64,000 nucleotides of DNA from Pyrinomonadaceae bacterium. Lineage in GTDB: Bacteria; Acidobacteriota; Blastocatellia; Pyrinomonadales; Pyrinomonadaceae. Under the pieces are notes generated by a model. That model did no database searches, was not told where the DNA came from, and saw nothing but the letters and a program-made list of their open reading frames with translations. Numbering within the stretch: position 1 is the first letter of the stretch; each line of letters opens with the position of its first letter. The translations under genes were made by a program, and so were the position numbers. The stretch covers positions 342 to 64,341 of the forward strand of contig JAYVKL010000045.1 of assembly GCA_043768465.1 (NCBI GenBank), read 5' to 3'. This document shows positions 7,933 through 59,392 of the stretch, piece after piece.

Positions 7933-7940
7933 CTCCTAAA

Positions 7941-7997
7941 TGGATAATTGATGATTGATAAGTTGATTATCCATTATCCATTATCCATTATCCATTA
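7941..7997. repeat. Imperfect hairpin with tandem heptamer arm (ATTATCC x4 / GGATAAT)
   Basis: tggataattgatgattgataa ... attatccattatccattatccattatcca. The right arm overlaps the guaD stop codon. The same heptamer recurs at 33270-33293. Confidence 0.6.
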
Positions 7998-9400: not shown

Positions 9401-10722
9401 TTTCCCAGAGCTTGATCAATCGCCTGCCGAAAACCGGCGGGCGAAAAACGGCGCACTTTCACGCCGTTAACGTAAATCGTCGGCGTTCCCGAAATGCCGA
9501 GCGTTTTGCCGTCGGCAATGTCTTTTTCGATGTCGGGAGCGAACTTTTTGCTTTTCAAATCGGCGGCAAATTGTTTGACGTTCAACCCGACTTGCGCCGC
9601 GTATTCGATCAGGGACGTTTCATTGAGTTTAGCTTGATTGGCGTATAAAATCTCGGTATATTCAAAAAATTTTCCCTGCGCGTGCGCCGCATTCGCCGCG
9701 AGCGCGGCGGCATAGGCGTTTTCGTGAATCTGCACGAGGGGAAAATCGCGCACGACGAAACGGATTTTGTCGCCGTAGCTTTTCAAAACTTCCTGCAAGA
9801 CCGGATGCGCCGCCGAACACGCCGAACACTGAAAATCGGAAAACATCACGACCGTGACGGGCGCGTTTGCTTTCCCGCGCGACGGCTGATTTTCCGTGGA
9901 AACGATTTGGACAATCGGCGAAATCTGTTTGATTTTGAACTGCGCGGCGTATTTTTTAAACAATCTTTGGCGCAGAGTTGATTCGAGCGCGAGCCGTTCC
10001 GCGTCGGAATAATCTTTCAATTTATCGGTGATTTCGCGGGCGATGTAATCGCTCGCGTCAATATTTTGGGCTTTTGCTTCGACGGCGGCGAGATTGGAAT
10101 AAACGATTTGCTCCAAAGATTCGCGGGCATCGTCGTAAACGTCGGCTTCGAGTTCGGAGAGCGCGATTTTATTTTTCGCTTCGTAGTTTTCGACGGAAAT
10201 CTGCCGGTCGCCGACGGTTGCCAAAACTTCAAACCGGCTCAAGTTCGCCGCGTTGACATCTTTGCCGAGCGCGGCTTTAAACTTTGTTTTCAGACTTGCA
10301 ATCAAAACCGCATAAGCCTTCTGCTGCGAATCGCGCTGCAAAAAAGCGACGATTTGCGGTTTGACCTGTTCCAAAGTCTGGCTCCCGACGGCGGCGCGAT
10401 TCGCGTCGTAAACCGCTTGAACTTCCTTTCCAGACGGCGCGGAAACTTTGTTTTTAATTTCCGTTTCAATCAATTTTTCGACGGTAATTTTCCGCGCCGC
10501 CGATTCTTTTTCAAACAAAACATCGACGATTTGCTGTTCGAGCAAAACCTGCCGCGTGTTTTTCAAGGTCGCCGGAAGATTTTCCAGTTCGCCGCGAACT
10601 TCCGGCGCAAGGTCCTGGGCGGTGAAATTTCGCCCGTTCGCCGTCGCCAGAACTTCGTCGGACTTTTGGGCGAAAACAACTCCGCAAAATAGCAATAAGA
10701 AGACCGACAAAAACAATTTCAT
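9397..10722 (-). CDS. Secreted thioredoxin-fold DsbA-family protein with SurA-N-like domain
   Basis: 441 aa with a signal peptide. CxxC in VTVVMFSDFQCSACSAAH, followed by a DsbA-like C-terminus (GISGTPTIYVNG). Confidence 0.7.
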   Translation of the reverse strand: MKLFLSVFLLLFCGVVFAQKSDEVLATANGRNFTAQDLAPEVRGELENLPATLKNTRQVLLEQQIVDVLFEKESAARKITVEKLIETEIKNKVSAPSGKEVQAVYDANRAAVGSQTLEQVKPQIVAFLQRDSQQKAYAVLIASLKTKFKAALGKDVNAANLSRFEVLATVGDRQISVENYEAKNKIALSELEADVYDDARESLEQIVYSNLAAVEAKAQNIDASDYIAREITDKLKDYSDAERLALESTLRQRLFKKYAAQFKIKQISPIVQIVSTENQPSRGKANAPVTVVMFSDFQCSACSAAHPVLQEVLKSYGDKIRFVVRDFPLVQIHENAYAAALAANAAHAQGKFFEYTEILYANQAKLNETSLIEYAAQVGLNVKQFAADLKSKKFAPDIEKDIADGKTLGISGTPTIYVNGVKVRRFSPAGFRQAIDQALGK

Positions 10723-10769: not shown

Positions 10770-10871
10770 GCTTTCACTCTTCGTTCTGAGTTCAAACTTC
10801 AGTTTGTTCTTCCGCCAGCGAAGCGCAGCGGCAACACGCTCAAGCGTGAACTCAGAACGAAGAACGAAAGC
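10770..10871 (+). repeat. Rep-A element copy A
   Basis: gctttcactcttcgttctgagttca-CAAACTTCAGTTTG-..CCGCCAGCGAAGCGCAGCGG..-CACGCTCAAGCGTG-aactcagaacgaagaacgaaagc. Terminal inverted repeats enclose three sub-hairpins. Confidence 0.8.
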
Positions 10872-12395: not shown

Positions 12396-13688
12396 CTAAA
12401 TCGCTTTGACGATGAATAGGGTTCCGTCGTCGTCCAGAAATTTTCTTTCCGTGAAATCCGCGACACCTTTTCTGATAAAATCAATCAGCTCTTTGGCGGA
12501 CAAATCTATTCCTTCCAGAACCCTTTTGGCGAAACGGTCGTTGCCGTATTCTTCGCCGTTGGCGTTCGCGCTTTCGACGATGCCGTCGGTGTAAAGAACC
12601 ATCAACTGATTTTCTTCAAACCGAATAAAATGCTGATGATAACGCGAATCGAAGAACATTCCGAGCGGCAAATCGCCGTATTCGACGAACCGATATTCGC
12701 CGTTCGGTTTGATGAGCAAAGGCGGATTATGTCCGGCGTTGGAGAAAACGAACGTCCGATTCGTCGCGTCCAGAATCCCGTAAATCGCCGTGATAAATTG
12801 ATTGTCGTCGACCGAATCCCAGAGCAGATTGCCGACTTTCGACAGAGCGATGTGCGGCGCATAGCCGATTTGAACGCTCGAACGGAGCGAAGCTCGCAGA
12901 AACGCCATCAAAAGCGCGGCGGGAATTCCCTTGCCGACGGCATCGGCGACGACGATGCCGATTTGGTCGTCGAACATTTTCACCCAATCATAGTAATCGC
13001 CCGAAACCTCTTCGGTCGGAAAAACATACGCGCTGATGTCGAAGCCTTCAAACTGCGGGTCGGCGGCGGGCAGCAATTCGAGTTGGACTTGCCGCGCGAT
13101 TTCAAGCTGCGTTTGCAAACGGTTTTTTTCGACGACCTGTTCGTGCAGTTGGACTTTTTCGATGATAATCGCCACCTGCGAAGCGAGCATAGTCAAAACC
13201 GATAAATCGTCTTCGTCATAAGCGTTCAGCGAATCGCTCTCCAAATCGAACACGCCGATCACCTCGTCATTGGAAATAATCGGCGCGACCATCTCCGATT
13301 TCGTCAGTTCTCTGGCTCGAAAATAGCGTGAATCCTGACTGACATCCGCCGAAATAAGCGGCTTCCGACTCTGCGCGACGTAACCGATAAAACCTTCGCC
13401 GACCTTCAAACGCGGCTCGACCATTTCGGAACTTATCTGATAGCCGCGAATCGCTTTCGATTTGAAAACATACTCCGTTTCTTCGTCTCGGACGACTGAT
13501 TCGACTAAATAAATCCCCGCCGCGTCGTAGTGCATCAACGAGCCGAGCGTGTCCATCACGAGCGTCAGAACCTCGTCCAAATCCAGCGAACGGCTGATGG
13601 TTTTCGTAATATCGAGCAGCATCCGCAGTTTATCAACCGTCGAAAGTTCCGGGTCGGGCGGAGAATTTTGGGCAATCGGTTCAATCAT
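12396..13688 (-). CDS. GAF domain + PP2C (SpoIIE/RsbU-type) serine phosphatase
   Basis: N-terminal GAF (GEGFIGYVAQSRKPLISADV ... APIISNDEVIGVFDLES). C-terminal PP2C (SGDYYDW ... VVADAVGKGIPAALLM ... YTDGIVE). I place the start at ATG 13688 (MIEPIAQ...). The track start at 13730 would translate the heptamer hairpin. Confidence 0.85.
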   Translation of the reverse strand: MIEPIAQNSPPDPELSTVDKLRMLLDITKTISRSLDLDEVLTLVMDTLGSLMHYDAAGIYLVESVVRDEETEYVFKSKAIRGYQISSEMVEPRLKVGEGFIGYVAQSRKPLISADVSQDSRYFRARELTKSEMVAPIISNDEVIGVFDLESDSLNAYDEDDLSVLTMLASQVAIIIEKVQLHEQVVEKNRLQTQLEIARQVQLELLPAADPQFEGFDISAYVFPTEEVSGDYYDWVKMFDDQIGIVVADAVGKGIPAALLMAFLRASLRSSVQIGYAPHIALSKVGNLLWDSVDDNQFITAIYGILDATNRTFVFSNAGHNPPLLIKPNGEYRFVEYGDLPLGMFFDSRYHQHFIRFEENQLMVLYTDGIVESANANGEEYGNDRFAKRVLEGIDLSAKELIDFIRKGVADFTERKFLDDDGTLFIVKAI

Positions 13689-13695: not shown

Positions 13696-13768
13696 AATGG
13701 TAAATGGTAAATGGTAAATGGTAAATACAAGATTCATATTTACCATTTACCATTTACCATTTGCCATT
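13696..13768. repeat. 73-nt hairpin: 32-bp stem of GGTAAAT heptamers, 9-nt loop
   Basis: Left arm 13696-13727 is aatggtaaatggtaaatggtaaatggtaaata. The right arm 13737-13768 is its complement with one G.T position. Loop is caagattca. It fills the ImmA-like/PP2C spacer. Confidence 0.9.
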
Positions 13769-13772: not shown

Positions 13773-14396
13773 TTATTCGCCACTCAACACTTTGACTTTG
13801 TATTCATCCCACAAACGCGAAATTTTCATTCGATATTCGACGAGTTCGCGGCTGACGTTAAAATGGCGGGCGATCTCACGCGAGGTTTTCCCCTGTGAAA
13901 TCATCGTCTGCAAAGCCGAATACGGCACGAGTGCCGCCGCGCCGACCGAATACGCCGCCTCTTCGTCGTCTTCGCGGTAATCCCGCGCAATCGGTTTGCC
14001 GTGTTTATTGACCGTTTCGACGGCGAGACGCGACGGCTGATGTCCGAGAAAAACGTGACAGATTTCCTCCATCAAAGTCGCGTTCTGCCGGTTTTCGCCG
14101 TGCGTCGGATTTAAGACAATCAATTTTCTGCCGTCAAACAACGCTTGCGAACACGCGCCGCCCGACCATTTATCGCTGCCCGCGCCGAGCAGGTGCGCCC
14201 TGGTTTCGGCGGTTAAAAACGGTTCGATTTGCTCGAACGAAGCGACGAGCAGATTGGCGTAACGCGCCAGCTCAAACGGATTTAGACGCTCGTCGTCGCG
14301 CCGCAGACCGGCGAATTCGCGCAAGCCGATGGCTCTGATTTCATACTGTCTGCCTTTGTTGCTCGGCGGCAAAATTGAAGTGTCCACGTCCGCCAT
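13773..14396 (-). CDS. ImmA/IrrE-family (COG2856-like) putative metallopeptidase with C-terminal HTH
   Basis: LMEEICHVFLGH sits at the HEXXH position, with Met where the first His would be. Downstream EEAAYSVGAAALVPY resembles the E..A..FA..LL.P motif. The C-terminal GKTSREIARHFNVSRELVEYR is HTH-like. Start placed at ATG 14396. Confidence 0.5.
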   Translation of the reverse strand: MADVDTSILPPSNKGRQYEIRAIGLREFAGLRRDDERLNPFELARYANLLVASFEQIEPFLTAETRAHLLGAGSDKWSGGACSQALFDGRKLIVLNPTHGENRQNATLMEEICHVFLGHQPSRLAVETVNKHGKPIARDYREDDEEAAYSVGAAALVPYSALQTMISQGKTSREIARHFNVSRELVEYRMKISRLWDEYKVKVLSGE

Positions 14397-14408: not shown

Positions 14409-14523
14409 AAAGGTCAAAGGTAAAAGGTCAAAGGCTTATCAAATCGTTTGATCGTTAATTTGATTTCAGAGATGACTTTTCAACGTTCATCATTTTGACG
14501 TTCTTACCTTTGACCTTTGACCC
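14409..14523. repeat. Hairpin with AAAGGTC heptamer arms and ~65-nt loop
   Basis: aaaggtcaaaggtaaaaggtcaaagg ... cttacctttgacctttgaccc, in the divergent ImmA-like/pgsA spacer. Confidence 0.7.
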
Positions 14524-15332: not shown

Positions 15333-15340
15333 AATAAAAA

Positions 15341-15377
15341 ACGAATGACGAACATTAAAGAAACATTCGTCATTCGT
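15341..15377. terminator. Bidirectional terminator-like hairpin
   Basis: acgaatgacgaa-cattaaagaaaca-ttcgtcattcgt, flanked by A/T runs, between convergent genes. Confidence 0.6.
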
Positions 15378-15398
15378 CATTTGAAATTCGCCTTTTGA

Positions 15399-16382
15399 TT
15401 ATTGAAGTTCCACGCTGTCGCCCGTGTGAATCTCCTGCGTCGTGCGGACGATCACCGCCGTCGCCGTTCGTTCCTTGACGTTCAAAATCACGATTTCGCC
15501 GAGGACGTTTCGCAGATTTGCCTGCCGACCGCGTTTGGCTTTTTCAGTCGTAACAACTTTTCCATTGGCTTTTTCGCCGCCTTTGCGCCCCGCCTGATTG
15601 GAAAATTTGCCGCCGCGATATTCGTAGCTTTGGAAACCTTCCTGTCTCGCGCTGACCGATTCGGGCGGCAAATCGTCGAGAATTTGTCCCGAACCGAGTT
15701 TGCGATAAATCGTCAGATAATCGCCGGTTTTTACGTTATCTTCCGCGCCTAAATCAATATAGACGATTTGTTCGCGCCCCAGGAGTTCCTGATTATCCCG
15801 CGCCATAAAAATTTTGCCGTTGGTTTTGCCCGACGAATCCGCAAAAAGATTTAACGCCGGACGCTTTTCAAAAACCGGACTCGTCCGCGACGGAATCGGC
15901 TGCACCAAATCGCCCAGAATCAGATTGTCGCACGACGAGACGACCCGCACGACCGAAGTCTCCGATTTGACATTGACAACCTCGACCGCGCCGATTTCCT
16001 GCACATAAAAACCGAGGTTTTTCTTTTTCGTCCAGCGCGTTTCGACGCGCCCGCGCGGACGAATAACCGACATCAAATCGCCGACTTTCACGCCCTTGTT
16101 CGCGCCCATATTGACGTAGAGAAAATCGTTCTGCGCGTAGATATTCTTTTCCTGCTCTTTGTCCGCGCCGACGATTTCATTTTTGACATCCACCGTGCCG
16201 GTTTCGACGTAACCGGCGCAGTATAAATTGTTTTTGCCGACAATCGGCAACTTCCGCACGTCTCGATTGACGACCAAACGCGGCGTGGGAGCCGGCTTCT
16301 GCGCCCAGGCGTTCGCCGCCAAAAAAAACACGATTAAAGAAAGCGTTCCGCAACTTGTTCTGTAGAAATTCTGAAAACTCAC
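15399..16382 (-). CDS. Secreted hypothetical protein
   Basis: 327 aa with a signal peptide (LSLIVFFLAANAWAQ). Repeated ...GD.V... beta-rich segments. No family recognised. Confidence 0.55.
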   Translation of the reverse strand: MSFQNFYRTSCGTLSLIVFFLAANAWAQKPAPTPRLVVNRDVRKLPIVGKNNLYCAGYVETGTVDVKNEIVGADKEQEKNIYAQNDFLYVNMGANKGVKVGDLMSVIRPRGRVETRWTKKKNLGFYVQEIGAVEVVNVKSETSVVRVVSSCDNLILGDLVQPIPSRTSPVFEKRPALNLFADSSGKTNGKIFMARDNQELLGREQIVYIDLGAEDNVKTGDYLTIYRKLGSGQILDDLPPESVSARQEGFQSYEYRGGKFSNQAGRKGGEKANGKVVTTEKAKRGRQANLRNVLGEIVILNVKERTATAVIVRTTQEIHTGDSVELQ

Positions 16383-21444: not shown

Positions 21445-21655
21445 CGCGGAAGTGGTTTCGGTAATAAACAAGCCGCGTAAAGTTCCCGACTTTGCGATTT
21501 TAGATTTTAGATTTTGGATCGGAAGATTCGCCAACTCTAAATCTGAGCCACTGAAATCAAACAATCCAAAATCCAAAATCGGTAATCTAAAATCGCCTTC
21601 ACGGTTGCGTGGGCAGTCGCGGATTTGCGCCGCGTTCCTTTGCGCCGGTTGCTCG
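21445..21655 (-). promoter_or_regulatory. Cobalamin riboswitch (leader of the TonB receptor gene)
   Basis: Minus-strand reading gives aaaGGAAcgcGGCGcaAATCCgcgaCtGcCCaCGCAACcGTGaagg. A long hairpin follows at 21496-21594, then the B12-box-like AAAGTCGGGAAC... This parallels the riboswitch at 24600-24806. Confidence 0.7.
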
Positions 21656-21656: not shown

Positions 21657-21738
21657 CTTTGTTCTGAGTTCAAACTTCAGTTTGCTTGCCGCCAGCGAAG
21701 CGCCGCGGCTTTTGCACGCTGAAGCGTGAACTCAAAAC
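21657..21738 (+). repeat. Rep-A element copy B
   Basis: ctttgttctgagttca-CAAACTTCAGTTTG-..CCGCCAGCGAAGCGCCGCGG..-CACGCTGAAGCGTG-aactcaaaac. Abuts the ATPase stop codon. Confidence 0.8.
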
Positions 21739-22517: not shown

Positions 22518-22586
22518 CCACGAGCAAACACGAAATTTCACGAAAAAGGATTTTAAATTTTCGTGTCTTTTCGTGTTTGTTCGTGG
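22518..22586. repeat. Rep-D hairpin (ACACGAAA-type ~10-nt units), copy 1
   Basis: ccacgagcaaacacgaaatttcacgaaaa - loop - ttttcgtgtcttttcgtgtttgttcgtgg. The right arm is near-identical to 47195-47228. It fills the permease-stop to ATPase-start spacer. Confidence 0.75.
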
Positions 22587-23561
22587 TTAATTCTTCCTCA
22601 ATAAATAAATAAACAACGGCGCACCGATTAGAGCGGTAATCGCGCCGACGGGCAATTCACGCGGCGCGATTGCCGTTCGCGCCATCGTGTCCGCCGCGAC
22701 GACGAAAACCGCGCCCGCCAATGCCGAAAACGGAATCACCAGACGATTATCGCTGCCAATCGTCAGACGAATCAGATGCGGCACAATCAGCCCGACGTAA
22801 CCGACCGAACCGCTCGCTGCAACCGAAATGCCGACGAGTGCCGAAGCCGTCGTGAAAACAATCAGGCGAACTTTACTGGTTTCCACGCCGAAATCGAAGG
22901 CATCGCGCTCGCCGATCATCATCAAATTCAACGCTTTCGCCTGCGAAGATAAAATAATCGTCCCGCCAATCGCGCAGATCAGAGTCGTGTAAAATCCGTT
23001 TTTCGTCGCTTGCGACAAATCGCCGAGCAGCCAGAACGTAAACGAGCGTAGTTTTGCCGCGTCCAAAAGCGTCGTCAGCAAAACCAGAATCGAAGACAAA
23101 AACGTCGTCACGATCACGCCCGCTAAAACGAGGCGTTCGACGCTCATTCCGGCGCGGCTTTTCGCCATTTGATAAACCGTCAAAGTCGCCAAACCTGCGC
23201 CGGCGATGGCGAAAATCGGACGCGCCCAAGCGGAATCGGCAAAGAAAACAAAAGCCAGCATCGTTCCCAAAGCCGCGCCGTTCGACACGCCCAACAGATA
23301 CGGCTCCGCCAAAGGATTCCGCAAAAGCGATTGCAGCGACGCGCCCGCCAACGCCAGACTCGCCCCGACGGCTCCGCCGAGCAAAACTCGCGGCAGACGA
23401 ATATCAAAAAGAATCGTCTGCTGATTCTCGTCCAATTCAAAGAACGCGAGCTTTTCACTGCCAAATAAAACGGCAATCGTCAAAACAATCAACAGCAAAA
23501 TCAGGAGACCAACGCCAAAACGCCAACCTCGAACCTTGAACCTTGAACCTTGAATTTTCAC
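22587..23561 (-). CDS. FecCD/BtuC-family ABC permease
   Basis: Typical BtuC pattern (LPRVLLGGAVGASLALAGASLQSLLRNPLAEPYLLGVS). Start placed at GTG 23561, which overlaps the upstream stop as GTGA. The first codons are encoded by GGTTCAA heptamers (KIQGSRFKVRGWRF). Confidence 0.85.
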   Translation of the reverse strand: MKIQGSRFKVRGWRFGVGLLILLLIVLTIAVLFGSEKLAFFELDENQQTILFDIRLPRVLLGGAVGASLALAGASLQSLLRNPLAEPYLLGVSNGAALGTMLAFVFFADSAWARPIFAIAGAGLATLTVYQMAKSRAGMSVERLVLAGVIVTTFLSSILVLLTTLLDAAKLRSFTFWLLGDLSQATKNGFYTTLICAIGGTIILSSQAKALNLMMIGERDAFDFGVETSKVRLIVFTTASALVGISVAASGSVGYVGLIVPHLIRLTIGSDNRLVIPFSALAGAVFVVAADTMARTAIAPRELPVGAITALIGAPLFIYLLRKN

Positions 23562-24484
23562 TCGTGCAAATCCTTCGCCAGCAGTTCGAGCGCGTCCACG
23601 ACGCGCGGACCCGGACGCGAAAGCCAAGCGGCGTTAAGGTGAAAAACTCGCTTGTTTTTGACCGCGCCGGAATTTACAAAAACGTCGTTCGGTTCTCTAT
23701 TATCTTCGCTGTCCGACAAAATTATCGCGTCGGGATTTAACGCCAGAGCCGTTTCCTTGCTCAGTTTTGGATACGCCGCTGCGACCTCTTTCGTCGCCGA
23801 TTCGCCGCCCGCCCGTTCGATAATTTCGGTGATAAACGAATCTTTGCCGACGGTGAACAGCGGCTCTTTCGAGATTTGCACGAAGACTTTTGTTTTCGGT
23901 TTGTCTTTGACTTTTTCGGCGACGGCTCGGACGCGCCTTTCCAAATCGGCGATTAACTTTTCGGCGTTCGTCGGCGTTCCCAAAATATCGCCGAGTTGTT
24001 TTAAGTTTCGCAAAATACCTTCAAAATCATTCGGGTTGGTGATGAAAACGGCGATATTCTGCCGTTCGAGCGTGGTCGTGAAATTTTCGATTTGCGAGGC
24101 GGTCGAAACGAAAACGATCTGCGGCTTGAGCGCGATAATCGTTTCGATATTCGGATTGATCGTGTCGCCGATTTTCGGGATTCTCTGTGCCTCCGCCGGA
24201 TAATCGCAAAAAGAAGTTACGCCGACGAGTTTGTCGCCCGCGCCGACGGCAAAAATGTTTTCCGTCAGATTCGGAGCGAGGGAGACGGCGCGGTTAATCG
24301 TCAGCGGAATTTTTATCGTTCTGCCCAAATCGTCGGTTATTTCGCGCGTCGGCAAAGCGGTTGGCACGGCTTGATCGGCACTCCGGCAATCGGTCAGCGC
24401 GAGCAGCGCGAACAGCAGAAAATACGACGCGGCGGCGCGTTTGAAAAGATGGCGATTTGAATGGGTAAGTTTCGTGGTCAACAA
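23558..24484 (-). CDS. Periplasmic substrate-binding protein, BtuF/FhuD fold (probable cobalamin-binding lipoprotein)
   Basis: Signal/lipobox-like LLALTDC. RAVSLAPNLTENIFAVGAGDKLVGVTSFCDYP is typical of PF01497-like binding proteins. TTG start. A cobalamin riboswitch lies upstream. Confidence 0.8.
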   Translation of the reverse strand: MLTTKLTHSNRHLFKRAAASYFLLFALLALTDCRSADQAVPTALPTREITDDLGRTIKIPLTINRAVSLAPNLTENIFAVGAGDKLVGVTSFCDYPAEAQRIPKIGDTINPNIETIIALKPQIVFVSTASQIENFTTTLERQNIAVFITNPNDFEGILRNLKQLGDILGTPTNAEKLIADLERRVRAVAEKVKDKPKTKVFVQISKEPLFTVGKDSFITEIIERAGGESATKEVAAAYPKLSKETALALNPDAIILSDSEDNREPNDVFVNSGAVKNKRVFHLNAAWLSRPGPRVVDALELLAKDLHE

Positions 24485-24599: not shown

Positions 24600-24806
24600 C
24601 CAAACGTCCTGACGCGGGACGATTTTCGGCTAAAAAACTTCAGACAGGTTTCCAGACTTTGCAATTAGCAGTCATCAGTTAGCAGTTATCATAAAATCAA
24701 AATGATAACTGCTAGCTGATGACTGCTAATTGCTTCACTGTGGCGCGACCGTGCGGGATTGACACCCGACTTTCCCATATCTTTGCCGCTTTTTTCAAAA
24801 AGCGGC
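24600..24806 (-). promoter_or_regulatory. Cobalamin riboswitch (leader of the btuF/C/D-like operon)
   Basis: Minus-strand reading gives GGGAAagtcGGGTGtcAATCCcgcaCgGtCgCGCCACaGTGaagc. A 73-nt hairpin follows at 24661-24733, then the B12 box AAAGTCTGGAAACCTGTC (24660-24641). Downstream is a terminator-like stem ctgcctt...aaggcag plus U-run (~24490-24535). Confidence 0.8.
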
Positions 24807-24977
24807 GCATCCGAAGCGTTTTAGGCTGAAAAGAACAAACCGAAATTTACCGACGAATCTGTAAATAAGGTGAAAGGCAACTTAGCACGATGAATCGTCA
24901 CAAGTCAAAAGCAATCGAATTTTGCGCTGATTTTGCTTGATCTTCGGCTTCGCTTGCGGCTATCCTGAAAAGGTCGA

Positions 24978-26354: not shown

Positions 26355-26452
26355 GCCCTCTTCGCGTCAGAGTCCACGCTTGAGCTTGTTCTTCCGTCGC
26401 GCTTCGCTGCCGGAGCAGACAAACTGAAGTTTGGACTCTGAACGAAGAAGGC
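26355..26452 (-). repeat. Rep-A element copy C (inverted orientation)
   Basis: gccctcttcgcgtcagagtcca-CGCTTGAGC-..CGTCGCGCTTCGCTGCCGG..-CAAACTGAAGTTTG-gactctgaacgaagaaggc. Confidence 0.8.
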
Positions 26453-29018: not shown

Positions 29019-29113
29019 GCCCGGCTTCGTTCAGAGTCCACGCTTAAGCGTGTTTCCGCCGCGCTTCGCTGGCGGAAGAACAAACTAAAGTTTGGACTCT
29101 GAACGAAGCAGGC
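29019..29113 (-). repeat. Rep-A element copy D (inverted orientation; best-preserved copy)
   Basis: gcccggcttcgttcagagtcca-CGCTTAAGCGTG-tttCCGCCGCGCTTCGCTGGCGGaagaa-CAAACTAAAGTTTG-gactctgaacgaagcaggc. Confidence 0.85.
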
Positions 29114-30236: not shown

Positions 30237-31988
30237 ATGACGGAAAATCCAAAATCCAAAATCCAAAATCCAGGATCCAGAATCCTTTGGCTGCTGTTCG
30301 CGTTGCTGATTGTCTTCGTCTATTTTTTCGGCTTGACGCTTCCGCTGTTGGGTCCCGACGAACCGCGTTACGCGCAGGTCGCCCGCGAAATGTATTTGCG
30401 CGGCGATTGGATTACGCCGACGCTCGGCGGTTTCGACTGGTTTGAAAAACCCGCGCTGCTTTACTGGCTCGAAATCGCGTCGTATAAAATCTTCGGCGTT
30501 TCGGAGTTTGCGGCGCGTTTCGGTTCGGCGGTTTTCGGGTTGGGAACGATTGCCTGTTTGTGGATTTTGGGGAAATCGGTTTCAGGTTTCAGGTTTCAGG
30601 TTTCAGGTGAAAAGATAGAAATCCTAAAGCAAACGTCTGAAATTCAGAAACCAGAAACCAGAGACCTGGAACCAGAAACCAGAAACCTGAAACCTGAAAC
30701 CAGAAACCTGAAACCTGAAACCTCCGTTTTTGCCAATTGGCTGGCTTTGATCGCCGCGTCATCAATTGGTTTGATCGTCTTTTCACGCGGCGCGAGTTTC
30801 GATATTATCCTCACTTTTCCGATTACCGCTGCGCTGGTTTGCTATTTTCTTTTTGAATCTTTGCTCCAAAAGCATTATTTTTGCGCCGTCCCGAATTCAA
30901 TTGTTCTTTCGAAATCTACGGCGGCAAACCTGATCGCTGCCGCGCCGCCGATTGCCTGGGCGAGCTTGTTTCTCGCCGGTTTTTACTTTTTTATCGGTTT
31001 CGCATTGCTTGCCAAAGGCCTGATCGGGTTGATTTTCCCGCTTACCATCGTGTTTTTTTATCACCTTCTGAAGTTTGAACTGCTGCCGGGCAAAGTATTT
31101 CTCATCAGTCTGATTTGGGGAACGATTATCAGTTTGCTCGTCGCGTCAATCTGGTATCTGCCGATGTATCGGGCGCACGGCTGGAAGTTCGTGGACGAGT
31201 TTTTTATCCAGCATCAATTTCAGCGTTTCACGTCCGACAAATATCAGCATCAGCAGCCGTTCTGGTTTTTCTTCGTCGTTCTGCCGCTGATGACTTTGCC
31301 GTGGCTGCCGTTTTTTCTGGCTTCGATCTGGAATTTTTTCAAGGTTCAAGGTTCAAGGTTTAAAGTTCAAAGTTCAAGATTTAATGTTCAAGGTTCAAAT
31401 AATCTCTCGACTCTCGACTCTCGCCTCGCTCCTTTCGCCTTCGCGTGGCTCGCCGTGCCGCTCGTTTTTTTCTCGCTTTCCGGCTCGAAACTTCCCGGCT
31501 ATATTTTGCCGGCACTGCCCGGCGCAATCGTTTTAACGGCGATTTATGTGGCTGATTTTGTGCGGAAATCGCGGACGCGAACGCGTGTTTTGCAGATTGC
31601 GGCAGCTTCGACTTTTCTATTCGTCTTCGTCGGTCTGCAATTTTTCGCGGCGGATTATACAAATTACGAAACCGTCAAAAATATGATTGCGGCGGCGGAT
31701 GCCAAAGGCTTTGCCGATGCCGAATTCGTCAGTCTCTACACGGTTTCGCACAATCTCGAATTCTACGCCGCCGGCAGATTAGAACGCGACGCGGACGGCA
31801 AACTCAAACGCTACGACGATTTTTCCGTGTTGATAAAAGCGGTCAAAACGGCAGGCGACCAACGAATTTTAGTCGTCGTGCCGCAAGCCAATGTGCCGAA
31901 TCTGCAAAAGGAAAACGACTTGGCGGACATCGAAACGATTGCCGAAAACGGCGAATCAGCGATTATCTTGATTAAGCCGAAACGGTAA
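30237..31988 (+). CDS. Glycosyltransferase family 39 (ArnT/PMT-like) membrane protein
   Basis: GPDEPRYAQVAREMYLRGDWITP signature and more than 10 TM helices. Carries three heptamer-tract-encoded segments (N-terminus, 30577-30725 and 31340-31429). Confidence 0.8.
   Translation: MTENPKSKIQNPGSRILWLLFALLIVFVYFFGLTLPLLGPDEPRYAQVAREMYLRGDWITPTLGGFDWFEKPALLYWLEIASYKIFGVSEFAARFGSAVFGLGTIACLWILGKSVSGFRFQVSGEKIEILKQTSEIQKPETRDLEPETRNLKPETRNLKPETSVFANWLALIAASSIGLIVFSRGASFDIILTFPITAALVCYFLFESLLQKHYFCAVPNSIVLSKSTAANLIAAAPPIAWASLFLAGFYFFIGFALLAKGLIGLIFPLTIVFFYHLLKFELLPGKVFLISLIWGTIISLLVASIWYLPMYRAHGWKFVDEFFIQHQFQRFTSDKYQHQQPFWFFFVVLPLMTLPWLPFFLASIWNFFKVQGSRFKVQSSRFNVQGSNNLSTLDSRLAPFAFAWLAVPLVFFSLSGSKLPGYILPALPGAIVLTAIYVADFVRKSRTRTRVLQIAAASTFLFVFVGLQFFAADYTNYETVKNMIAAADAKGFADAEFVSLYTVSHNLEFYAAGRLERDADGKLKRYDDFSVLIKAVKTAGDQRILVVVPQANVPNLQKENDLADIETIAENGESAIILIKPKR
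30577..30725. repeat. Heptamer-arm hairpin (GGTTTCA / TGAAACC) lying in frame inside the GT39 CDS
   Basis: cggtttcaggtttcaggtttcaggtttcaggtg ... cagaaaccagaaaccagagacctggaaccagaaaccagaaacctgaaacctgaaaccagaaacctgaaacctgaaacc. It translates as [11 protein letters not shown]...KPETRDLEPETRNLKPETRNLKPET. Confidence 0.9.
31340..31429. repeat. Tandem GGTTCAA-type heptamers plus CTCTCGA units, in frame inside the GT39 CDS
   Basis: caaggttcaaggttcaaggtttaaagttcaaagttcaagatttaatgttcaaggttcaaat...ctctcgactctcgactctcgc. It translates as KVQGSRFKVQSSRFNVQGSNNLSTLDSRL. Confidence 0.85.
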
Positions 31989-32020: not shown

Positions 32021-32124
32021 TTTTGCTTCGTTCAGAGTCCAAACGCGAAACGCAATTTGTCTTCGTCCGCCAGCGAAGCGCGGCGGAAACACGCTGGAGG
32101 CGTGGACTCTGAACGAAGACCAAA
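32021..32124 (+). repeat. Rep-A element copy E
   Basis: ttttgcttcgttcagagtcca-AACGCGAAACGCAATTTG-..CCGCCAGCGAAGCGCGGCGG..-CACGCTGGAGGCGTG-gactctgaacgaagaccaaaa. Confidence 0.8.
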
Positions 32125-32301
32125 ATATCTCGGAACTTTCAACTAGAGCAGATTGCGAATTAGTGTCTGGCAGACTGTTAGTCTGCCGCATATTTTTGAC
32201 GGAAATTTCGATGGTAGCAGACTAACAGTCTGTCATACATTCGATCCAAATTTGATCGAAATGATTATCAGCCGTTCCGAATCTGCCGCAAAAACGTCGT
32301 T

Positions 32302-33282
32302 TCAATTTTGCGCCGCCCGTTTCAATCTGTCCGTTAAAGCCGCGCCGATTCCCGCATCCGCCACTGTTTCGCAATAAATCGTCTTGATATTCCGTCGGTC
32401 GCATTCCCGAAAAAAGGCGAAAACTTCGTGCGCGTATTCGTCAACCGACGCGCAAATTTTCACCGAATCAAACGGCTGATGCGGTTCATTTAATCCGATA
32501 AACGCGCTTGATCTGGAATCTGAAATCTGAAATCTGGAATCTGGAATTAAAACTACTCGCGCCGTCGGCGAATAATGACGATGTTTCAAACCCGGACTTT
32601 TCGGCGTTTCATCATTTCCGGCTTGATAATTTCGCGTTTCTGGAACGATCCTCTGCAAATCGCGCAGTGAAATCGCGCCGCTTCGCAAAACCAGAGGCGC
32701 GTTCGCAGTGCAGTCAACGACGGTTGACTCCAATCCGATTTCCGTCATTGCTCCCTTCAGAATGCAGTCAATCACACCGTCTAAATCTTCAAACACGGCT
32801 TGCCACGTCGTCGGCGAAGGCTTGCCCGAAAGATTTGCCGACGGCGCAACAATTGGCGTTTCGCAAGCCGTCAGGAATTCCCGCGCCAGTTCACTGCGCG
32901 GCATTCGCACGCCGATTGTTTCGAGATTCGCCGTCGCAAGCAAAGGCACTCGCGCCGCTTTCGGTAACACTAAAGTCAAAGGCGCGGGGAAAAACGCCGC
33001 GATAAACTTCTCCGCCGACGGCGTAACTTCGGAAACAAGAAGCTTGATTTGTTCCAGACTTCCGACGTGCGCGATCAGCGGATTATCGTTCGGTCGCCGT
33101 TTCGCCGCAAAAATTTTAGCAATCGCCGCCGCATCGAAAACATCTGCGCCCAAACCGTAAACCGTTTCGGTCGGAAACGCGACGATGCCGCCGCTTTTAA
33201 TAAATTCGGCGGCTTCAGTCGGCGATTCGGTTAGGACGGTTTTCATTTTCACAGTTAAAACTTTTACGACTTCATTATCCAT
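32302..33282 (-). CDS. L-threonylcarbamoyladenylate synthase (Sua5/YwlC type, YrdC domain + Sua5 C-domain)
   Basis: GGIVAFPTETVYGLGADVFD and IAHV motifs. The inter-domain linker contains the heptamer-encoded IPDSRFQISDSRSS (DNA 32510-32547). An alternative start is ATG 33246 (MKTVLTES...). Confidence 0.85.
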   Translation of the reverse strand: MDNEVVKVLTVKMKTVLTESPTEAAEFIKSGGIVAFPTETVYGLGADVFDAAAIAKIFAAKRRPNDNPLIAHVGSLEQIKLLVSEVTPSAEKFIAAFFPAPLTLVLPKAARVPLLATANLETIGVRMPRSELAREFLTACETPIVAPSANLSGKPSPTTWQAVFEDLDGVIDCILKGAMTEIGLESTVVDCTANAPLVLRSGAISLRDLQRIVPETRNYQAGNDETPKSPGLKHRHYSPTARVVLIPDSRFQISDSRSSAFIGLNEPHQPFDSVKICASVDEYAHEVFAFFRECDRRNIKTIYCETVADAGIGAALTDRLKRAAQN

Positions 33283-43164: not shown

Positions 43165-43313
43165 AGCGTGTTTGGAAATTCAAAAGGATTGGCAATTTTG
43201 CATTTTACATTCTTCATTCTAAATTTTTATCCGGTAAAAATTAAAAATGTAAAATGAAGAATGTAAAATTAAGCCGTCAACTTTTCGACCGAACGACTTT
43301 CCAAACACGCCCT
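43163..43313. repeat. Rep-B element, intact ~151-bp copy
   Basis: TIRs are AGAGCGTGTTTGGAAA ... TTTCCAAACACGCCCT. The core hairpin is aattttgcattttacattcttcattctaaattttt-atccgg-taaaaattaaaaatgtaaaatgaagaatgtaaaatt, built from TACATT-type heptamers. Confidence 0.8.
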
Positions 43314-47130: not shown

Positions 47131-47146
47131 TTCCAAAACAATTTTT

Positions 47147-47228
47147 AGCCGCGAACAAACACGAAAAAATACAGAAAATAAATTGACCTTTATTTTTCTT
47201 TCGTGTCTTTTCGTGTTTGTTCGCGGCT
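47147..47228. repeat. Rep-D hairpin, copy 2
   Basis: agccgcgaacaaacacgaaaaaa ... tttctttcgtgtcttttcgtgtttgttcgcggct. Between galU (+) and the convergent histidine kinase gene. Confidence 0.75.
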
Positions 47229-47237
47229 CAATCTTTT

Positions 47238-49316
47238 TTACAGGCGCGGCAGCGTGAAGCTAAACCGCGAACCCGCGCCGATTTCCGATTTAACTTCGAC
47301 CGCGCCGCCATGCTGTTCGATGATTTCCTTGACCAAAGATAATCCGAGTCCGGTTGATTCTTCTTCTTTATCGAAACCGTCACGCGCCACGCGATAAAAT
47401 TTTTGCCAGATTTTATCCTGTTCTCCCATCGGAATGCCGTAACCGCGGTCTTCGACGACGACGCGCAGAAAATCCGATTCCAGCATCGTCGAGATAATAA
47501 CGCTCGTTCGTTCCGGGCTGTAGCGAATCGCGTTGTCAATCAGATGCCTGACGGCGCGCGTAATCAAACCTTTATCGGCGGCGACCGGCGGCAGGTGCGT
47601 GTTCGCCTGTTCGACCAGGCGGATGCGCTTGCGTTTGGCATGGTCCTGCAAATCGCCGACCACTTCGCTGACCACCGCGTCGAGTTTGACCGGCGTTTTA
47701 ATAAATTCCTGTTTGTCGGATTGTTCGAGATTGGAAACCGACAGAAACGTCGAAAGCATTTTCGATAACCGCTGCGATTCGTGGGAAATGATTGTTAAAA
47801 ATTCGCGCGATTCTTCTTTGATGGCATCGTCCATCAACAACAGTTCGGCGAAACCGCTGATCGAGGTGATCGGCGTGCGAAGTTCGTGCGACATCAAACT
47901 CGCCATATCGCTGCGGAGCTTTTCGTTTTCTTTGACGGCGGAGACATCGCGGAAAGTAAGCAGAAAACACGCCGGTTTCATCAGTGCGCTCGTTTCGTGA
48001 ATCGCCGTATCGTCAAACGGAACTTTCACCAGGGAAATCTGCATATCGAGGGTTTTATTGGTCTTCGCAAAATAAAGTTCGCTCTTGAAAGTATCGCCCG
48101 TTTGCAGAACGCGCCGAATCGCCAGTTGCGGCTCGCTGAAAACGTCGGTCTTAAAGCGGTCAAGCAGCCCGAACAAATCAATTTCGTAAAATTCCTGATG
48201 GCTCAATTGCGCGAAACGCCGAATCTGCCGGTTCAGATACGCGATGGTTCCATCCAGATAGGCGACGGCGTAGGCTTCGTTCAGATATGAACTTGCCAGT
48301 GCGCTGAACGCCTGTTCCTTGATATTCGTGTGGACGAGACTGATGATGGCAAGCCGGTTTTCCGCCGATTCGCTCGAAAACGAACTTTGCCAAGACTCGT
48401 GCGGCAGCATTCGCCCGCGCAATTCTTTACGCTGAAAATTTCGGGCTAACTGCTCGCTGAACGCTTCGAGCAGATGCTGGTCGCCGCGTTCAAAATTTTG
48501 ATTGATCTGCACGAATAAAACGCCGACCGCAGCACCCGCAAAAATCAGCGGAATGGCGATTCGCGCCGATGTTTCCTCGTTTTCGGCGGTTTGCACAATC
48601 GTTTCGAGCCGCGCCAACGCCGCCTCGCAGAACCCGACGTTTTCGCGCCACGACGACTGTCTTTCGATGAAAGAGTCCGCCGATTTACCGTTTCGCGCCC
48701 GCCCGACCGGATGCAGATCGCCGTCCGCCGTGCGGCGAAAAATTATCGCTTCGGACAGCGGCAAAACCGTTTCGAGCAGGCGCAGACCGCTCTCGATTCG
48801 CAAATCCGCCGACTTTCCTTCCAACAGATAGCCTGCCGAGGCAAGCGTCACCAGGCTGTCCGTCAACGCGGTGTCAATCAGCCACAAAGTCTTAAAATGA
48901 ATAAAAACAATTGTCAGCAAAATTGTCAGTGCCATCGGAACGAACAGCAGGCTGACTTCAAAAAACCGCGCCGCGATAACACTCAAAACCAGCCACGCCG
49001 CCAGAAATTCCAGCGCATACCGCAAAGCTTTTTTCGGGCAGAATTTTTCGGTGAGCAATCCGGTAATCACGCTCACCGCGATTAAAATTAAAGGATTCCA
49101 CCAAACAAACACCGCGCCCAGCGGTTTGACAATTGCCGAAAACCCAGAGAACGCGGGAATCCAGAAGCGTCCCACCACTGAAACCAAAAGGGCAGCCGCC
49201 ACCGAAATCAACAGCGATAGCTTAATGCTTTTAAATTTAAATTTCGTCATAAAAGGAAGAATTTCGGCAGCAACGGAAGATTTGAGGTTAAAAAGAAGTT
49301 GGGTGGCGGCAAACAT
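47238..49316 (-). CDS. Membrane sensor histidine kinase (multi-TM N-domain, GAF/PAS-like middle, HisKA + HATPase_c); no adjacent response regulator
   Basis: H-box SHELRTPITSISGFAELL, N-box LIDNAIRYS and G-boxes EDRGYGIP / STGLGLSLVKEI. Start uncertain (alternative Met at MTKFKFK). Confidence 0.85.
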   Translation of the reverse strand: MFAATQLLFNLKSSVAAEILPFMTKFKFKSIKLSLLISVAAALLVSVVGRFWIPAFSGFSAIVKPLGAVFVWWNPLILIAVSVITGLLTEKFCPKKALRYALEFLAAWLVLSVIAARFFEVSLLFVPMALTILLTIVFIHFKTLWLIDTALTDSLVTLASAGYLLEGKSADLRIESGLRLLETVLPLSEAIIFRRTADGDLHPVGRARNGKSADSFIERQSSWRENVGFCEAALARLETIVQTAENEETSARIAIPLIFAGAAVGVLFVQINQNFERGDQHLLEAFSEQLARNFQRKELRGRMLPHESWQSSFSSESAENRLAIISLVHTNIKEQAFSALASSYLNEAYAVAYLDGTIAYLNRQIRRFAQLSHQEFYEIDLFGLLDRFKTDVFSEPQLAIRRVLQTGDTFKSELYFAKTNKTLDMQISLVKVPFDDTAIHETSALMKPACFLLTFRDVSAVKENEKLRSDMASLMSHELRTPITSISGFAELLLMDDAIKEESREFLTIISHESQRLSKMLSTFLSVSNLEQSDKQEFIKTPVKLDAVVSEVVGDLQDHAKRKRIRLVEQANTHLPPVAADKGLITRAVRHLIDNAIRYSPERTSVIISTMLESDFLRVVVEDRGYGIPMGEQDKIWQKFYRVARDGFDKEEESTGLGLSLVKEIIEQHGGAVEVKSEIGAGSRFSFTLPRL

Positions 49317-54343: not shown

Positions 54344-54467
54344 GCCGTCTCAAAAATCGGAAATTCTAAATTTTTCATTTTTCATTCTAAATTTTACCGA
54401 GGAAAAAATGAAGAATTGAGAATGTAAAATTTAGAATTTAAGACGACCGGCGGATTTTTGAGATAGC
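54344..54467. repeat. Rep-B-related element
   Basis: gccgTCTCAAAAATCgg...aaattctaaatttttcatttttcattctaaatttt-accgagg-aaaaaatgaagaattgagaatgtaaaatttagaattt...ccggcgGATTTTTGAGAtagc. Confidence 0.65.
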
Positions 54468-55406: not shown

Positions 55407-55415
55407 AAAACATTT

Positions 55416-55486
55416 AGCCACAGAGATCACAGGGATCACCGAGAAAAATTTATAAACTCTCTGTGATCTCTGTGATCTCTGTGGCT
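55416..55486. repeat. Hairpin with ~9-nt tandem units (CACAGAGAT / ATCTCTGTG)
   Basis: agccacagagatcacagggatcaccgag - loop - ctctgtgatctctgtgatctctgtggct. ~29 bp with 2 mismatches, in the rsfS-rlmH spacer. Confidence 0.8.
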
Positions 55487-55489
55487 GAT

Positions 55490-55923: not shown

Positions 55924-55985
55924 CAGTTGTCAGTCATCAGTCGTCAGTCATTTTGTAATCAATGATAACTGATGACTGATAACCG
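55924..55985. repeat. Imperfect hairpin with CAGTCAT heptamers
   Basis: cagttgtcagtcatcagtcgtcagtcatt-ttgtaatc-aatgataactgatgactgataaccg. The same unit forms the hairpin inside the riboswitch at 24661-24733. Confidence 0.7.
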
Positions 55986-55986: not shown

Positions 55987-56691
55987 CTAAATGTAAAGTT
56001 CGTATTTTTCGACGTATTTTGCAACCTCGTCCGGCACGAGTTCGCGCCAATCTGTTTGATTATCACGAATTTTCTGTCGAATCTCCGTTGCCGAAACGTC
56101 GAGATTGACGGCATCGGTGAGGTAAATTTTAGTTTCTCGCTTCTCGTTTCTCGTTTCTCGCTTTCCATCTGAAACCTGAAACCTGAAACCTGAAACCTGT
56201 CCGCGTAAATCAACGATTCGGGCGCGAATCGCTTCCGTCACCTGTGAAAATTCGATTTCGTAATCGGGGCGCGTGACGACGATGATATTGGTCTGCGTTA
56301 AAACCGTTTCCCACTCGCGCCAGGTCGTGATTTCCGTCCAGGAGTCCGCGCCGATGACAAAGTAGATTTCCGCGTCGGGCAAATTATTTACCAATTTCGC
56401 CTGCGTTTCAAACGTAAAAGGCTTTTCGGGAGCGTCGAGTTCGATGGTGGAAATTTCAATTTTAGCTTCGTTCGCCGTCGCCAGACAAAGCATCGCGTAT
56501 CGGTGAAACGCCGAAGTCGGCTGGCGGTCTTTTTTGTGCGGCGCGTGAAAAGCCGGAATGAAAACGAATCGGTCGAGCGCGAATAATTCGATTGTTTTTC
56601 GCGCAATCGCCAAATGTCCGTTGTGAAGCGGATCAAACGAGCCGCCGTAAAACGCGATGCGCCCATGTTTCACCGATTTGTTAAAATTCAT
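55987..56691 (-). CDS. nadD: Nicotinate-nucleotide adenylyltransferase
   Basis: [15 protein letters not shown] (HxGH) and the C-terminal DVSATEIR (ISST-like). Start placed at ATG 56691, with GTG 56673 also possible. Contains a ~25-aa heptamer-encoded insert. Confidence 0.9.
56133..56199. repeat. Two adjacent heptamer tracts (TTTCTCG x4, CTGAAAC x4) in frame inside nadD
   Basis: tttctcgcttctcgtttctcgtttctcgctttcc + atctgaaacctgaaacctgaaacctgaaacctg. Translated on the minus strand as [25 protein letters not shown]. The second tract matches the right arm of the hairpin at 58279-58351. Confidence 0.9.
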
Positions 56692-58278: not shown

Positions 58279-58351
58279 GGTTTCAGGTTTCAGGTTTCAG
58301 GTTTCAGATTGCATTTTCCAATCTGAAACCTGAAACCTGAAACCTGAAACC
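58279..58351. repeat. 73-nt perfect hairpin: 32-bp stem of GGTTTCA heptamers, 9-nt loop
   Basis: 58279-58310 is ggtttcaggtttcaggtttcaggtttcagatt. 58320-58351 is its exact reverse complement. Loop is gcattttcc. It occupies most of the 96-nt rplU-rpmA spacer. Confidence 0.95.
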
Positions 58352-58734: not shown

Positions 58735-59392
58735 ACGCGGACAAAATATCCGTCAAGAAAAATTCACCGGTAAATGATATTTTCTCGCCTCGAACGGCGC
58801 GTTAGTAAATACGGAGACCGAGTTTGTCAGCCGACGGTGAAAAATTATGCGAATGCGATGACCTGCCAAAAGCCGCAGATATTTTAATGCTCGAATTATT
58901 TCTGAAATCCGAGCAGTTTTACAAGTATTTTTCATCATCGTGATTTTTATTTGGCAGTCTTTGACTTTGACTGAAGATTTTCGGGTTGCTGGTCCTGAAT
59001 TCAGCGCGTCAAAAACAGCACCGGATTATGAAAAAACTTCGATTTATTTTTTATTACATCAAACTGCGTTCGAGCGTTATGCTCGGCTTTCACCAAACGA
59101 GTTATCCGCTGAACTTGAAATGGCATTGGAAGTTCTGGAAATATCAGGAGAAACAGCGCAGCGGTCGTTGAGACCGATTCTTGTCCCGGTAGTTTTTTCG
59201 CGGCGTTCCCGGTCAGCTTTTTCAAATACTTCTTTCCCTGATCTTTTCCGCTCTTCAACCGAAAATTGACAGCTTTTCGTCCCGGCGCATCTTCATTTAT
59301 TTTTTAGAGCGTGTTTGAAAATTCAAAAAAGACCGGCAATTTTACATTTTACATTCTAAATTTTTATCCGGTAAAAATTTAGAATGTCGAAT

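Follow-up and report, generated by a model that had tools for sequence, protein, structure and literature searches.

Three large hairpins of one span (73 nt) and unrelated sequence, here called H1, H2 and H3, lie in a 64,000-nt stretch of contig JAYVKL010000045.1 from a Pyrinomonadaceae bacterium of the phylum Acidobacteriota (assembly GCA_043768465.1); this whole stretch is referred to below as the window. Homologues 81-93% identical likewise bear names that assign the organism to this family and phylum. A first-pass annotation had taken their common size as a sign of a ruler, that is, of a machine making or trimming such structures to a fixed length. Our analysis suggests, with a probability of about 0.6, that H1-H3 are locally grown palindromes of heptanucleotide simple-sequence repeats and not copies of an element, shaped by slippage, template switching and selection. 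The shared 73 nt is the product of a soft size preference plus coincidence: a median value has been met three times, and no length has been measured.

All three hairpins are present where they had been placed and share no sequence. H1 (13696-13727 pairing with 13737-13768) and H2 (24661-24692 with 24702-24733) have 32-bp stems with one G.T position each and 9-nt loops, as described. The stem of H3 (58279-58351) is perfect, as had been claimed, but its geometry is not 32 bp with a 9-nt loop, since G58311 pairs with C58319 to give 33 bp and a 7-nt loop; the three are thus identical in span but not in stem and loop. It had also been argued that the common length could not follow from the number of units, 32 not being a multiple of 7. 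However, all three lie on one four-unit step: each arm consists of four full heptamer units plus a partial or inner segment of 4-5 nt, and the 17-nt core in the middle consists of 4-5 bp and a loop of 7-9 nt, giving 28 + 17 + 28 = 73. Tandem Repeats Finder resolved AATGGTA x4.4 and ATTTACC x4.6 in H1, GCAGTTA-type units x4 in H2, and TTCAGGT x4.7 and CTGAAAC x4.1 in H3, and the 7-periodicity of the arms is 0.64-0.96. As RNA, H1, H2 and H3 fold with energies of -43, -51 and -60 kcal/mol, respectively, with z-scores of -11 to -13 relative to shuffled sequences, and the loop of H1 closes to 3 nt. The flanking genes, and a riboswitch that contains H2, are on the minus strand, on which both G.T positions (H1 and H2) become A.C mismatches. 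The identical dimensions apply to DNA palindromes, not to transcripts. Reading the G.T positions as a sign of selection at the RNA level was ruled out, as they are A.C on the transcribed strand, and a fixed heptamer phase at the arm ends is not meaningful as a test, the units being unrelated.

Sizes were surveyed in a proxy sample, not in the whole source genome: about 1.4 Mb of loci pooled from other genomes, comprising loci with GGTTTCA arrays from many phyla, viral contigs and long-read Pyrinomonadaceae genomes. Hairpin calls were limited to at most five G.T pairs, as relaxed scoring gave false hairpins from direct GGTTTCA arrays pairing with each other via G.T; the 30 viral contigs with GGTTTCA arrays yielded only 7 usable hairpins. 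This gave 79 unique hairpins with tandem-unit arms, 68 of them outside the window. The spans of these 68 are unimodal and broad (median 73, standard deviation 12, interquartile range 66-79, overall 42-105 nt); exactly 73 nt was found in three and the 32/9 combination of stem and loop in one, while loop lengths are flat over 2-30 nt. The first-pass annotation had expected a peak at 32/9 from a ruler and a broad unimodal distribution from coincidence, and it is the latter, with no excess at 32/9, that was obtained in this sample.

Some regularity is nevertheless present. Arm lengths form a plateau at 18-31 bp, have their mode at 32 bp (9/77) and drop sharply beyond 33, and no arm with at most one mismatch is longer than 33 bp although perfect direct arrays can be as long as 134 nt. 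Of 18 clean long hairpins, 15 have spans of 73-80 nt, with stems and loops compensating (25/25/25, 30/13/30, 32/9/32), and hairpins without periodic arms have neither arm-length nor span regularity. Drawing on 60 hairpins outside the window, we estimate a probability of ~0.12 for a span common to three or more of the 11 within it; for identical spans in the three cleanest it is ~0.006, but this choice was made post hoc. A size preference or ceiling therefore exists, without evidence that anything measures 73 nt. The idea of a ruler making or trimming hairpins to a fixed 32/9 is not supported, given the broad census, the size drift among orthologues and the single-unit indels described below; the soft preference or ceiling survives, and a soft arm-length mode at ~30-33 bp is what remains of the idea.

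As judged from orthologous sites, the hairpins are old residents of their positions that evolve in place, rapidly and by units, with drifting size, because these sites keep a hairpin while its unit, arm length and loop change. H2 aligns to the variable peripheral stem of the RF00174 model, immediately 5' of the B12 box, in a cobalamin riboswitch followed by a btuF-like gene (23558-24484), whose homologues are named cobalamin-binding protein, and by fecCD, ABC ATPase and TonB-dependent receptor genes. Orthologous cobalamin riboswitches were located in relatives (L217 and L218 among them; L numbers denote the loci compared), and the insert between the conserved flanks measures 74 nt in the window, 68 in L218, 85 in L214, 75 in L217 and L260, and 80 in L259. 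Between the window and L218 the loop and the inner stem are conserved and the outer units replaced. The hairpin of the L217 riboswitch (9752-9824) is a perfect 30/13/30 structure that spans 73 nt, and its L260 orthologue has this span too. The inserts of L214, L218 and L259, by comparison, have one heptamer type in one arm and another in the other, with only 3-5 bp paired per unit. Mirrored irregular units occur inside the near-perfect or perfect arms of H2 and of L217 9752-9824.

H3 occupies a 96-nt spacer between rplU (58364-58648) and rpmA (57971-58267). In eight relatives (L27 82-100% identical) this spacer is 78-102 nt long and the hairpins span 62-83 nt, with units including GGTTTCA, ATTCCAG, TTGCCGA, AAAATCC and GGTCTTT; two other relatives have spacers of 34 nt and 9 nt and no such hairpin. 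In the window, an AAGGAG motif resembling a Shine-Dalgarno (SD) sequence lies 5' of H3 (58352-58363) and none adjoins the rpmA ATG. Likewise, most hairpin-bearing relatives have a GGAGG-like motif just past the rplU stop codon, 5' of the hairpin, and none by the rpmA ATG, and a hairpin-less relative (L137) has its SD 8 nt from the rpmA ATG. The SD-like GGAGG/AAGGAG is 75-95 nt upstream of the rpmA ATG, with the hairpin between, in the window, L134, L135, L138, L007 and L008. A scan of metagenome contigs based on Obg collected 80 loci and was of use only for this rplU-rpmA series; most relatives below ~70% Obg identity have no heptamer hairpins. A GlgC look-up returned nothing. The 7-nt loop of H3 (58312-58318) was also observed in both orientations, being inverted in L009 (206-278) and L005, and in L009 the flipped loop is the sole difference over 758 nt; this may reflect true flipping or an error of short-read assembly.

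H1 takes up almost all of an 84-nt spacer whose neighbours are an IrrE-like peptidase gene (13773-14396) and a GAF-SpoIIE phosphatase gene (12396-13688), beginning 4 nt past the stop codon and ending 7 nt ahead of the ATG. Its orthologues have recognisably related units and measure 73 nt in the window, 85 in L249-252 and 63 in L254, while that of L253 is decayed. On a shorter time scale, the contig L002 is 99.7% identical to the window over 16 kb, with 31 substitutions and only three indels, two of which correspond to single repeat units in a hairpin arm: in L002 the hairpin at 55926-55983 has an extra 7-nt unit in one arm, and that at 55414-55488 lacks a 9-nt unit in one arm. Of H1-H3, L002 covers only H3, and no unit indel was seen there.

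The window itself is strongly biased towards this period. Among perfect arrays of at least 16 nt, 30 have period 7, compared to 3, 4, 0, 1, 0, 0 and 0 with periods 5, 6, 8, 9, 10, 11 and 12, respectively, and roughly half of the perfect period-7 arrays are in or mostly in the non-coding ~13% of the window. The remaining perfect arrays lie in frame in the GT39, NadD and Sua5 genes, or at the starts of the FecCD and GFO genes. The GT39/ArnT-like gene carries further in-frame arrays at 30244-30285 and 31338-31427, and its product has 583 aa versus 517-533 aa in orthologues (50-66 aa longer). The NadD insert sits in a loop of variable length among relatives, and the sua5 array (32511-32547) is likewise in a loop of Sua5. 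In GT39 and NadD, which are unrelated proteins, the GGTTTCA arrays encode one and the same peptide, VSGFRFQVS. More than 119 genomes, including those of Flavobacterium, Pyrinomonadaceae/Blastocatellia, Desulfobacterales, Planctomycetota, Verrucomicrobiota and Kiritimatiellia, contain exact (GGTTTCA)x3 arrays, as do 30 viral contigs (IMG/VR).

These observations can be accommodated by a combination of processes. Replication slippage in a 7-nt register would expand and homogenise each arm, and intramolecular template switching across the hairpin (quasipalindrome correction) would copy one arm onto the other; such arm-to-arm copying would account for the near-perfect 32-33 bp complementarity, including the mirrored irregular units. 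Selection would keep the insert foldable where an unfolded insert of 70 nt would hurt, as in the peripheral stem of a riboswitch or in short intercistronic spacers, where a folded stem could keep the upstream stop codon (or the SD) close to the next start codon. Growth might be checked near a clean arm of 30-33 bp, presumably through the instability of longer perfect palindromes or arrays, and mature hairpins would then accumulate at ~4-4.5 units per arm, with 73 nt representing four units, the 17-nt core and four units. Quasipalindrome template-switch mutagenesis corrects one arm from the other and gives perfect palindromes, and flip-flop inversion of hairpin loops, as in the small inversions of chloroplast non-coding DNA, leaves a loop in both orientations between relatives. 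These are general mutational processes and not a family, and here they would act on arms that are tandem arrays.

Several points weigh against this explanation. The clean long hairpins are tighter in span (15/18 at 73-80 nt) than a simple slippage walk obviously predicts, and clean arms are 29-33 bp alike for 7-mer and 9-mer units. A 7-nt ladder in arm length has a Rayleigh p of 0.017 in the clean set and of 0.29 overall, with control periods near significance. GGTTTCA, TAACTGA-like, AAAATCC and ATTTTAC units recur at unrelated loci and in distant phyla, and because the same few heptamers recur in this way, pure local slippage from random seeds is insufficient. Furthermore, template switching and the palindrome-instability ceiling are inferred from general processes, and the size census is drawn from genomes other than the source.

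A second explanation is that the hairpins are primarily functional RNA elements whose function sets their size, either intercistronic stems for processing or stabilisation (RNase III sites like those of early T7 phage mRNA, REP-like 3' protectors) or devices acting between a stop codon or SD and the next start (coupling, hairpin bypass). This is consistent with five hairpins almost exactly filling same-strand spacers (0-12 nt past the stop codon and 5-11 nt ahead of the ATG; 22518-22586, for example, begins 0 nt past the stop and ends 7 nt ahead of the ATG), with the position of the GGAGG-like motif at rplU-rpmA and its change in the hairpin-less relative, with hairpins being kept in place from species to species although their sequence has turned over completely, and with H2 standing in the native stem position of a riboswitch. 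As an RNase III processing site, the hairpins would be compatible by helix length (>20 bp) alone. However, the same arrays and inverted arrays also occur within coding sequences and in the intervals of convergent as well as divergent gene pairs, pairing decays in several orthologues, both apparent wobbles are A.C mismatches on the transcribed strand, and SD sequences are mostly absent in this organism. An SD-like tetramer occurs within 20 nt upstream of the start in only 15/54 window genes, and the leaders are A/T-rich; heptamer-rich Bacteroidetes and Cyanobacteria are likewise SD-poor. We consider a size set by RNA function rather unlikely. H1-H3 were also considered as intrinsic terminators and rejected, having no T run and lying between co-oriented genes or in a 5' leader; none of the three has a T tail, and all three are missing from the output of a terminator scan. 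A tRNA-like reading was rejected as well.

True length measuring, through a sequence-independent enzyme (RAYT-like, a hairpin nuclease or of the RNase III type) or through selection for a ligand of fixed size, would yield ~73-76 nt and ~32-bp arms. The exact 73 nt in three unrelated sequences and in the L217 and L260 riboswitch orthologues speaks for it, as do the mode at 32 bp with its sharp fall past 33, the compensating loops of the 15/18 clean long hairpins at 73-80 nt, the like arm length of hairpins with 9-mer and 10-mer units, and a co-resident, sequence-related palindromic family of ~76 nt with 7-periodic arms. Against this stand spans of 42-105 nt with a standard deviation of 12, flat loop lengths from 2 to 30 nt and a single 32/9 hairpin among 68; size differences between orthologous hairpins reach 22 nt, populations carry segregating unit indels confined to one arm, some orthologues are weakly paired (-15 to -23 kcal/mol) yet persist, and the probability of at least 3/11 sharing a span is ~0.12. 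The window has no candidate enzyme gene either: of the partners suggested by the first-pass annotation, no RAYT, IS200/IS605, reverse transcriptase or RNase III gene is found among the Pfam-annotated window genes, whose sole transposase is of the DDE IS4 type. Length measuring is, on balance, improbable. A related proposal, to which we give a similarly small chance, is that a sequence-blind, structure-specific process in Pyrinomonadaceae and further heptamer-rich bacteria builds or keeps 7-nt-periodic hairpins with arms of ~30-33 bp and a span of ~73-80 nt; candidates are a hairpin-binding recombinase or nuclease shared with the 76-nt palindromic family, or a limit arising from single-strand-binding or replication proteins. 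If this were true, unrelated sequences would converge on one geometry, and the hairpins would be looped-out modules tolerated by ribosomes and riboswitches.

Insertion of miniature mobile elements resembling MITEs (miniature inverted-repeat transposable elements) or REPINs is very improbable. The genome does hold a strain-polymorphic 112-nt MITE and the 76-nt palindromic family with its shared termini, ATTTTAC-type hairpins at 43202 and 59346 have inner-arm and loop sequence in common, and GGTTTCA arrays occur at several loci. However, H1-H3 have neither termini nor a core in common, whether among themselves or with other loci, repeat searches gave no further window copies, no target-site duplication and no direct repeats flank them, and orthologous sites hold homologous, diverging hairpins (such as the conserved loop between the window and L218), implying evolution in place; the window has no Y1/RAYT transposase, and its IS4-type element is itself inserted in a hairpin. 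Least probable of all, to the point of being negligible, is an artefact introduced at repeats when short metagenomic reads were sequenced or assembled: contigs L003, L004, L005 and L010 do break inside H3 and de Bruijn graphs can mis-assemble the orientation of a palindrome loop, but identical hairpins occur in independent assemblies of different samples (L001, L002, L009, L130) and equivalent ones in long-read complete genomes of relatives (L217, L249-L253, L259, L260).

Apart from H1-H3, the window contains other hairpins and inverted arrays (Table 1). At least 11 hairpins have tandem-unit arms, spanning 47-79 nt in our scan, or as much as 104-114 nt where looser pairs are included. Two that had been singled out earlier as close in size to H1-H3 are real: 22518-22586 spans 69 nt and is built of 10-mers, and 55416-55486 spans 71 nt (75 if extended) and is built of 9-mers. 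A non-repeat palindrome of 28 bp (43328-43387), flanked by a T run at either end and located between convergent genes for a DUF3618 protein and SerS and 59 nt from the heptamer hairpin 43202-43269, is a candidate for a strong bidirectional terminator.

Table 1. Hairpins, arrays and related features, with positions in the window unless another locus is named
Feature	Position	Strand	Description
H1	13696..13768	-	palindrome of (AATGGTA)x4.4 + complement; 32 bp, 9-nt loop, 73 nt
H2	24661..24733	-	palindrome of heterogeneous TAACTGA-like heptamers (GCAATTA GCAGTCA TCAGTTA GCAGTTA); 32 bp, 9-nt loop, 73 nt
H3	58279..58351	-	perfect palindrome of (GGTTTCA)x4 + GATTG; 33 bp, 7-nt loop, 73 nt
Cobalamin riboswitch aptamer	24626..24829	-	Rfam RF00174, 38 bits vs gathering score 31.5
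AATTGAT/ATTATCC-unit hairpin	7939..7997	-	overlaps stop codon of dCMP deaminase gene
Inverted arrays AAAGGTC x3.7 / TTTGACC x4, 59 nt apart	14409..14522	.	divergent intergenic region
Short GACGAAT-unit hairpin followed by T tail	15340..15378	-	terminator-like, downstream of gene 15399-16382
Imperfect inverted arrays GATTTTA/AAATCCA	21491..21596	-	spacer of ABC ATPase and TonB receptor genes
10-mer-unit hairpin, 29/11/29, 69 nt	22518..22586	-	fills 76-nt fecCD-ABC ATPase spacer
ATTTTAC-type hairpin, 4 units per arm, 28/12/28, 68 nt	43202..43269	.	between convergent genes
Imperfect 48/8/48 inverted repeat, 10-mer units	47136..47239	.	between convergent genes
AT-rich heptamer hairpin, 5 units per arm, 35/9/35, 79 nt, 4 mismatches	54361..54439	.	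between convergent genes
9-mer-unit hairpin, 31/13/31, 75 nt	55414..55488	-	fills rsfS-rlmH spacer
TAACTGA-like heptamer hairpin, 58 nt	55926..55983	-	fills nadD-rsfS spacer
Left part of 68-nt ATTTTAC-unit hairpin	59339..59392	.	rest at 60613-60639; split by IS4-family insertion
GGTTTCA x4.4, 36-nt gap, (CAGAAAC/CTGAAAC) x11	30578..30722	+	in frame in GT39/ArnT-like membrane protein gene 30237-31988
Adjacent arrays GGTTTCA x4.4 + CGAGAAA-type x4.3 (minus-strand reading)	56134..56199	-	in frame in NadD
76-nt family, window copies	10783-10858, 21661-21735, ~26367-26443, 29029-29104, 32030-32114, 40792-40859, ~57775-57851		
76-nt family, other copies	L217 1022-1099, L249 14237-14315, L260 2728-2807		

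The second, sequence-related palindromic family was observed alongside the heptamer hairpins. It is REP/MITE-like and ~76 nt long (range 68-85), with roughly 7-periodic arms, termini GTTC[A/T]GAGT[T/C]C (GTTCAGAGTTC termini) and the conserved core CCGCCAGCGAAGCGC; its terminal motif has 12 matches in the window versus ~1 expected. It suits the description of a REP better than H1-H3 do and matches the heptamer hairpins in size class. Long-read assemblies of four strains found together in one sample differ in one such element: L250 has its centre in the reverse orientation, with a 5-nt indel, compared to L249, L251 and L252, and the flanks are identical. Flipping of palindrome centres is therefore real in this group.

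Other elements were observed nearby. A 112-nt MITE-like element, with terminal inverted repeats GAGCAnATT and internal GGCAGACTnnAGTCTGCC inverted repeats, lies in the rpmA-obg spacer of near-identical strains (L005 485-596, and L010), the corresponding window site (57846-57849) being empty; a related copy is found at window 32139-32264. An IS4-family insertion sequence (~59393-60612; transposase genes 59405-60343 and 60353-60577; terminal inverted repeats TAGGGC...) with a 10-bp target duplication GAATGTCGAA sits within the 3' arm of a 68-nt ATTTTAC-unit hairpin; its transposase is single-copy. A low-GC stretch at 35304-38004 (0.36 vs ~0.49), encoding a GmrSD-type restriction endonuclease, a BrnT toxin and a small upstream open reading frame (ORF), is probably an acquired defence island.

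Inverted pairs of heptamer arrays are already known as a kind. In Xanthomonas campestris and X. axonopodis, each genome holds 70-75 GGGAATC arrays that are arranged in convergent inverted pairs and can form stem-loops; they are mostly intergenic and mostly transcribed, and related species differ in their length and sequence but keep their position and repeat type (single versus inverted pair) (Rehm et al. 2015, PMC4692102). An excess of heptamers in bacteria has been ascribed to polymerase slippage (work cited in PMC4692102). The likeness lies in the head-to-tail 7-nt arms and in inverted pairs at kept positions with varying length and sequence. In Xanthomonas, however, there is one G-rich unit with quadruplex potential, whereas here each hairpin has a different unit, mostly AT-rich and of the GG+W5 type, several are near-perfect palindromes of 32-33 bp, the host belongs to the Acidobacteriota, and one hairpin is in a riboswitch stem. 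TAACTGA direct repeats of Beggiatoaceae, Cyanobacteria and Bacteroidetes have a 7-nt unit in 2-6 copies per set; they are intergenic, often ending a few nucleotides before a start codon, with some in frame in ORFs, and they also occur in ribosomal-protein operons, in organisms with few SD sequences (MacGregor 2015, PMC4679880). The sets are almost all direct repeats of one heptamer, with 1 inverted in 170 (PMC4679880). TAACTGA-like units are found in H2 and in 55926-55983, and the cyanobacterial short tandemly repeated repetitive (STRR) heptanucleotide sequences are a related phenomenon, like the TAACTGA repeats; unlike either, an inverted, hairpin-forming arrangement of many different heptamers dominates here.

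Mobile palindromes and phage intercistronic hairpins also invite comparison. REP, REPIN and BIME sequences are imperfect palindromes of tens of nucleotides in intergenic or intercistronic positions, whose transcribed stem-loops can protect upstream mRNA, and REP families have a shared consensus and are dispersed by a Y1 transposase (RAYT). H1-H3 differ in having no sequence in common, and no RAYT gene was seen among the Pfam-annotated window genes or in the other gene lists consulted. H1-H3 were rejected as REPINs (no common consensus sequence, no other window copies) and as MITEs (no shared terminal inverted repeats, no target-site duplication, both of which the 112-nt element in L005 has). 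In phage T4, a stem-loop lies between the SD and the start codon of genes 25 and 38, and phage T7 has RNase III sites between cistrons. In these cases translation signals or cistrons are separated by a stable, looped-out hairpin, to which the rplU-rpmA spacer is comparable. The T4 and T7 hairpins are shorter, have specific sequences and a demonstrated function, whereas those described here are known from sequence alone. A literature search found nothing on heptamer hairpins in Acidobacteria. The present case stands apart from the described ones in the use of many unrelated heptamers, the near-perfect palindromes, their occurrence in Acidobacteriota and the hairpin in a riboswitch stem.

No new molecular ruler is revealed by the three hairpins. 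For annotation, such hairpins break short-read assemblies, may be taken for small-RNA genes or mobile elements, and add in-frame length to ORFs. More generally, a mutational bias (7-nt slippage, probably together with palindrome correction) can write large, near-perfect hairpins into sensitive sites without destroying them, among them the stem of a riboswitch, the spacer between rplU and rpmA, and loops in NadD and other essential enzymes. Because their sequence turns over fully in place, the hairpins offer a natural system for asking what amount of additional stem is tolerated by a riboswitch or an intercistronic junction, what sets the clean-arm ceiling at ~33 bp, and why heptamers, and the same few of them, recur across phyla.

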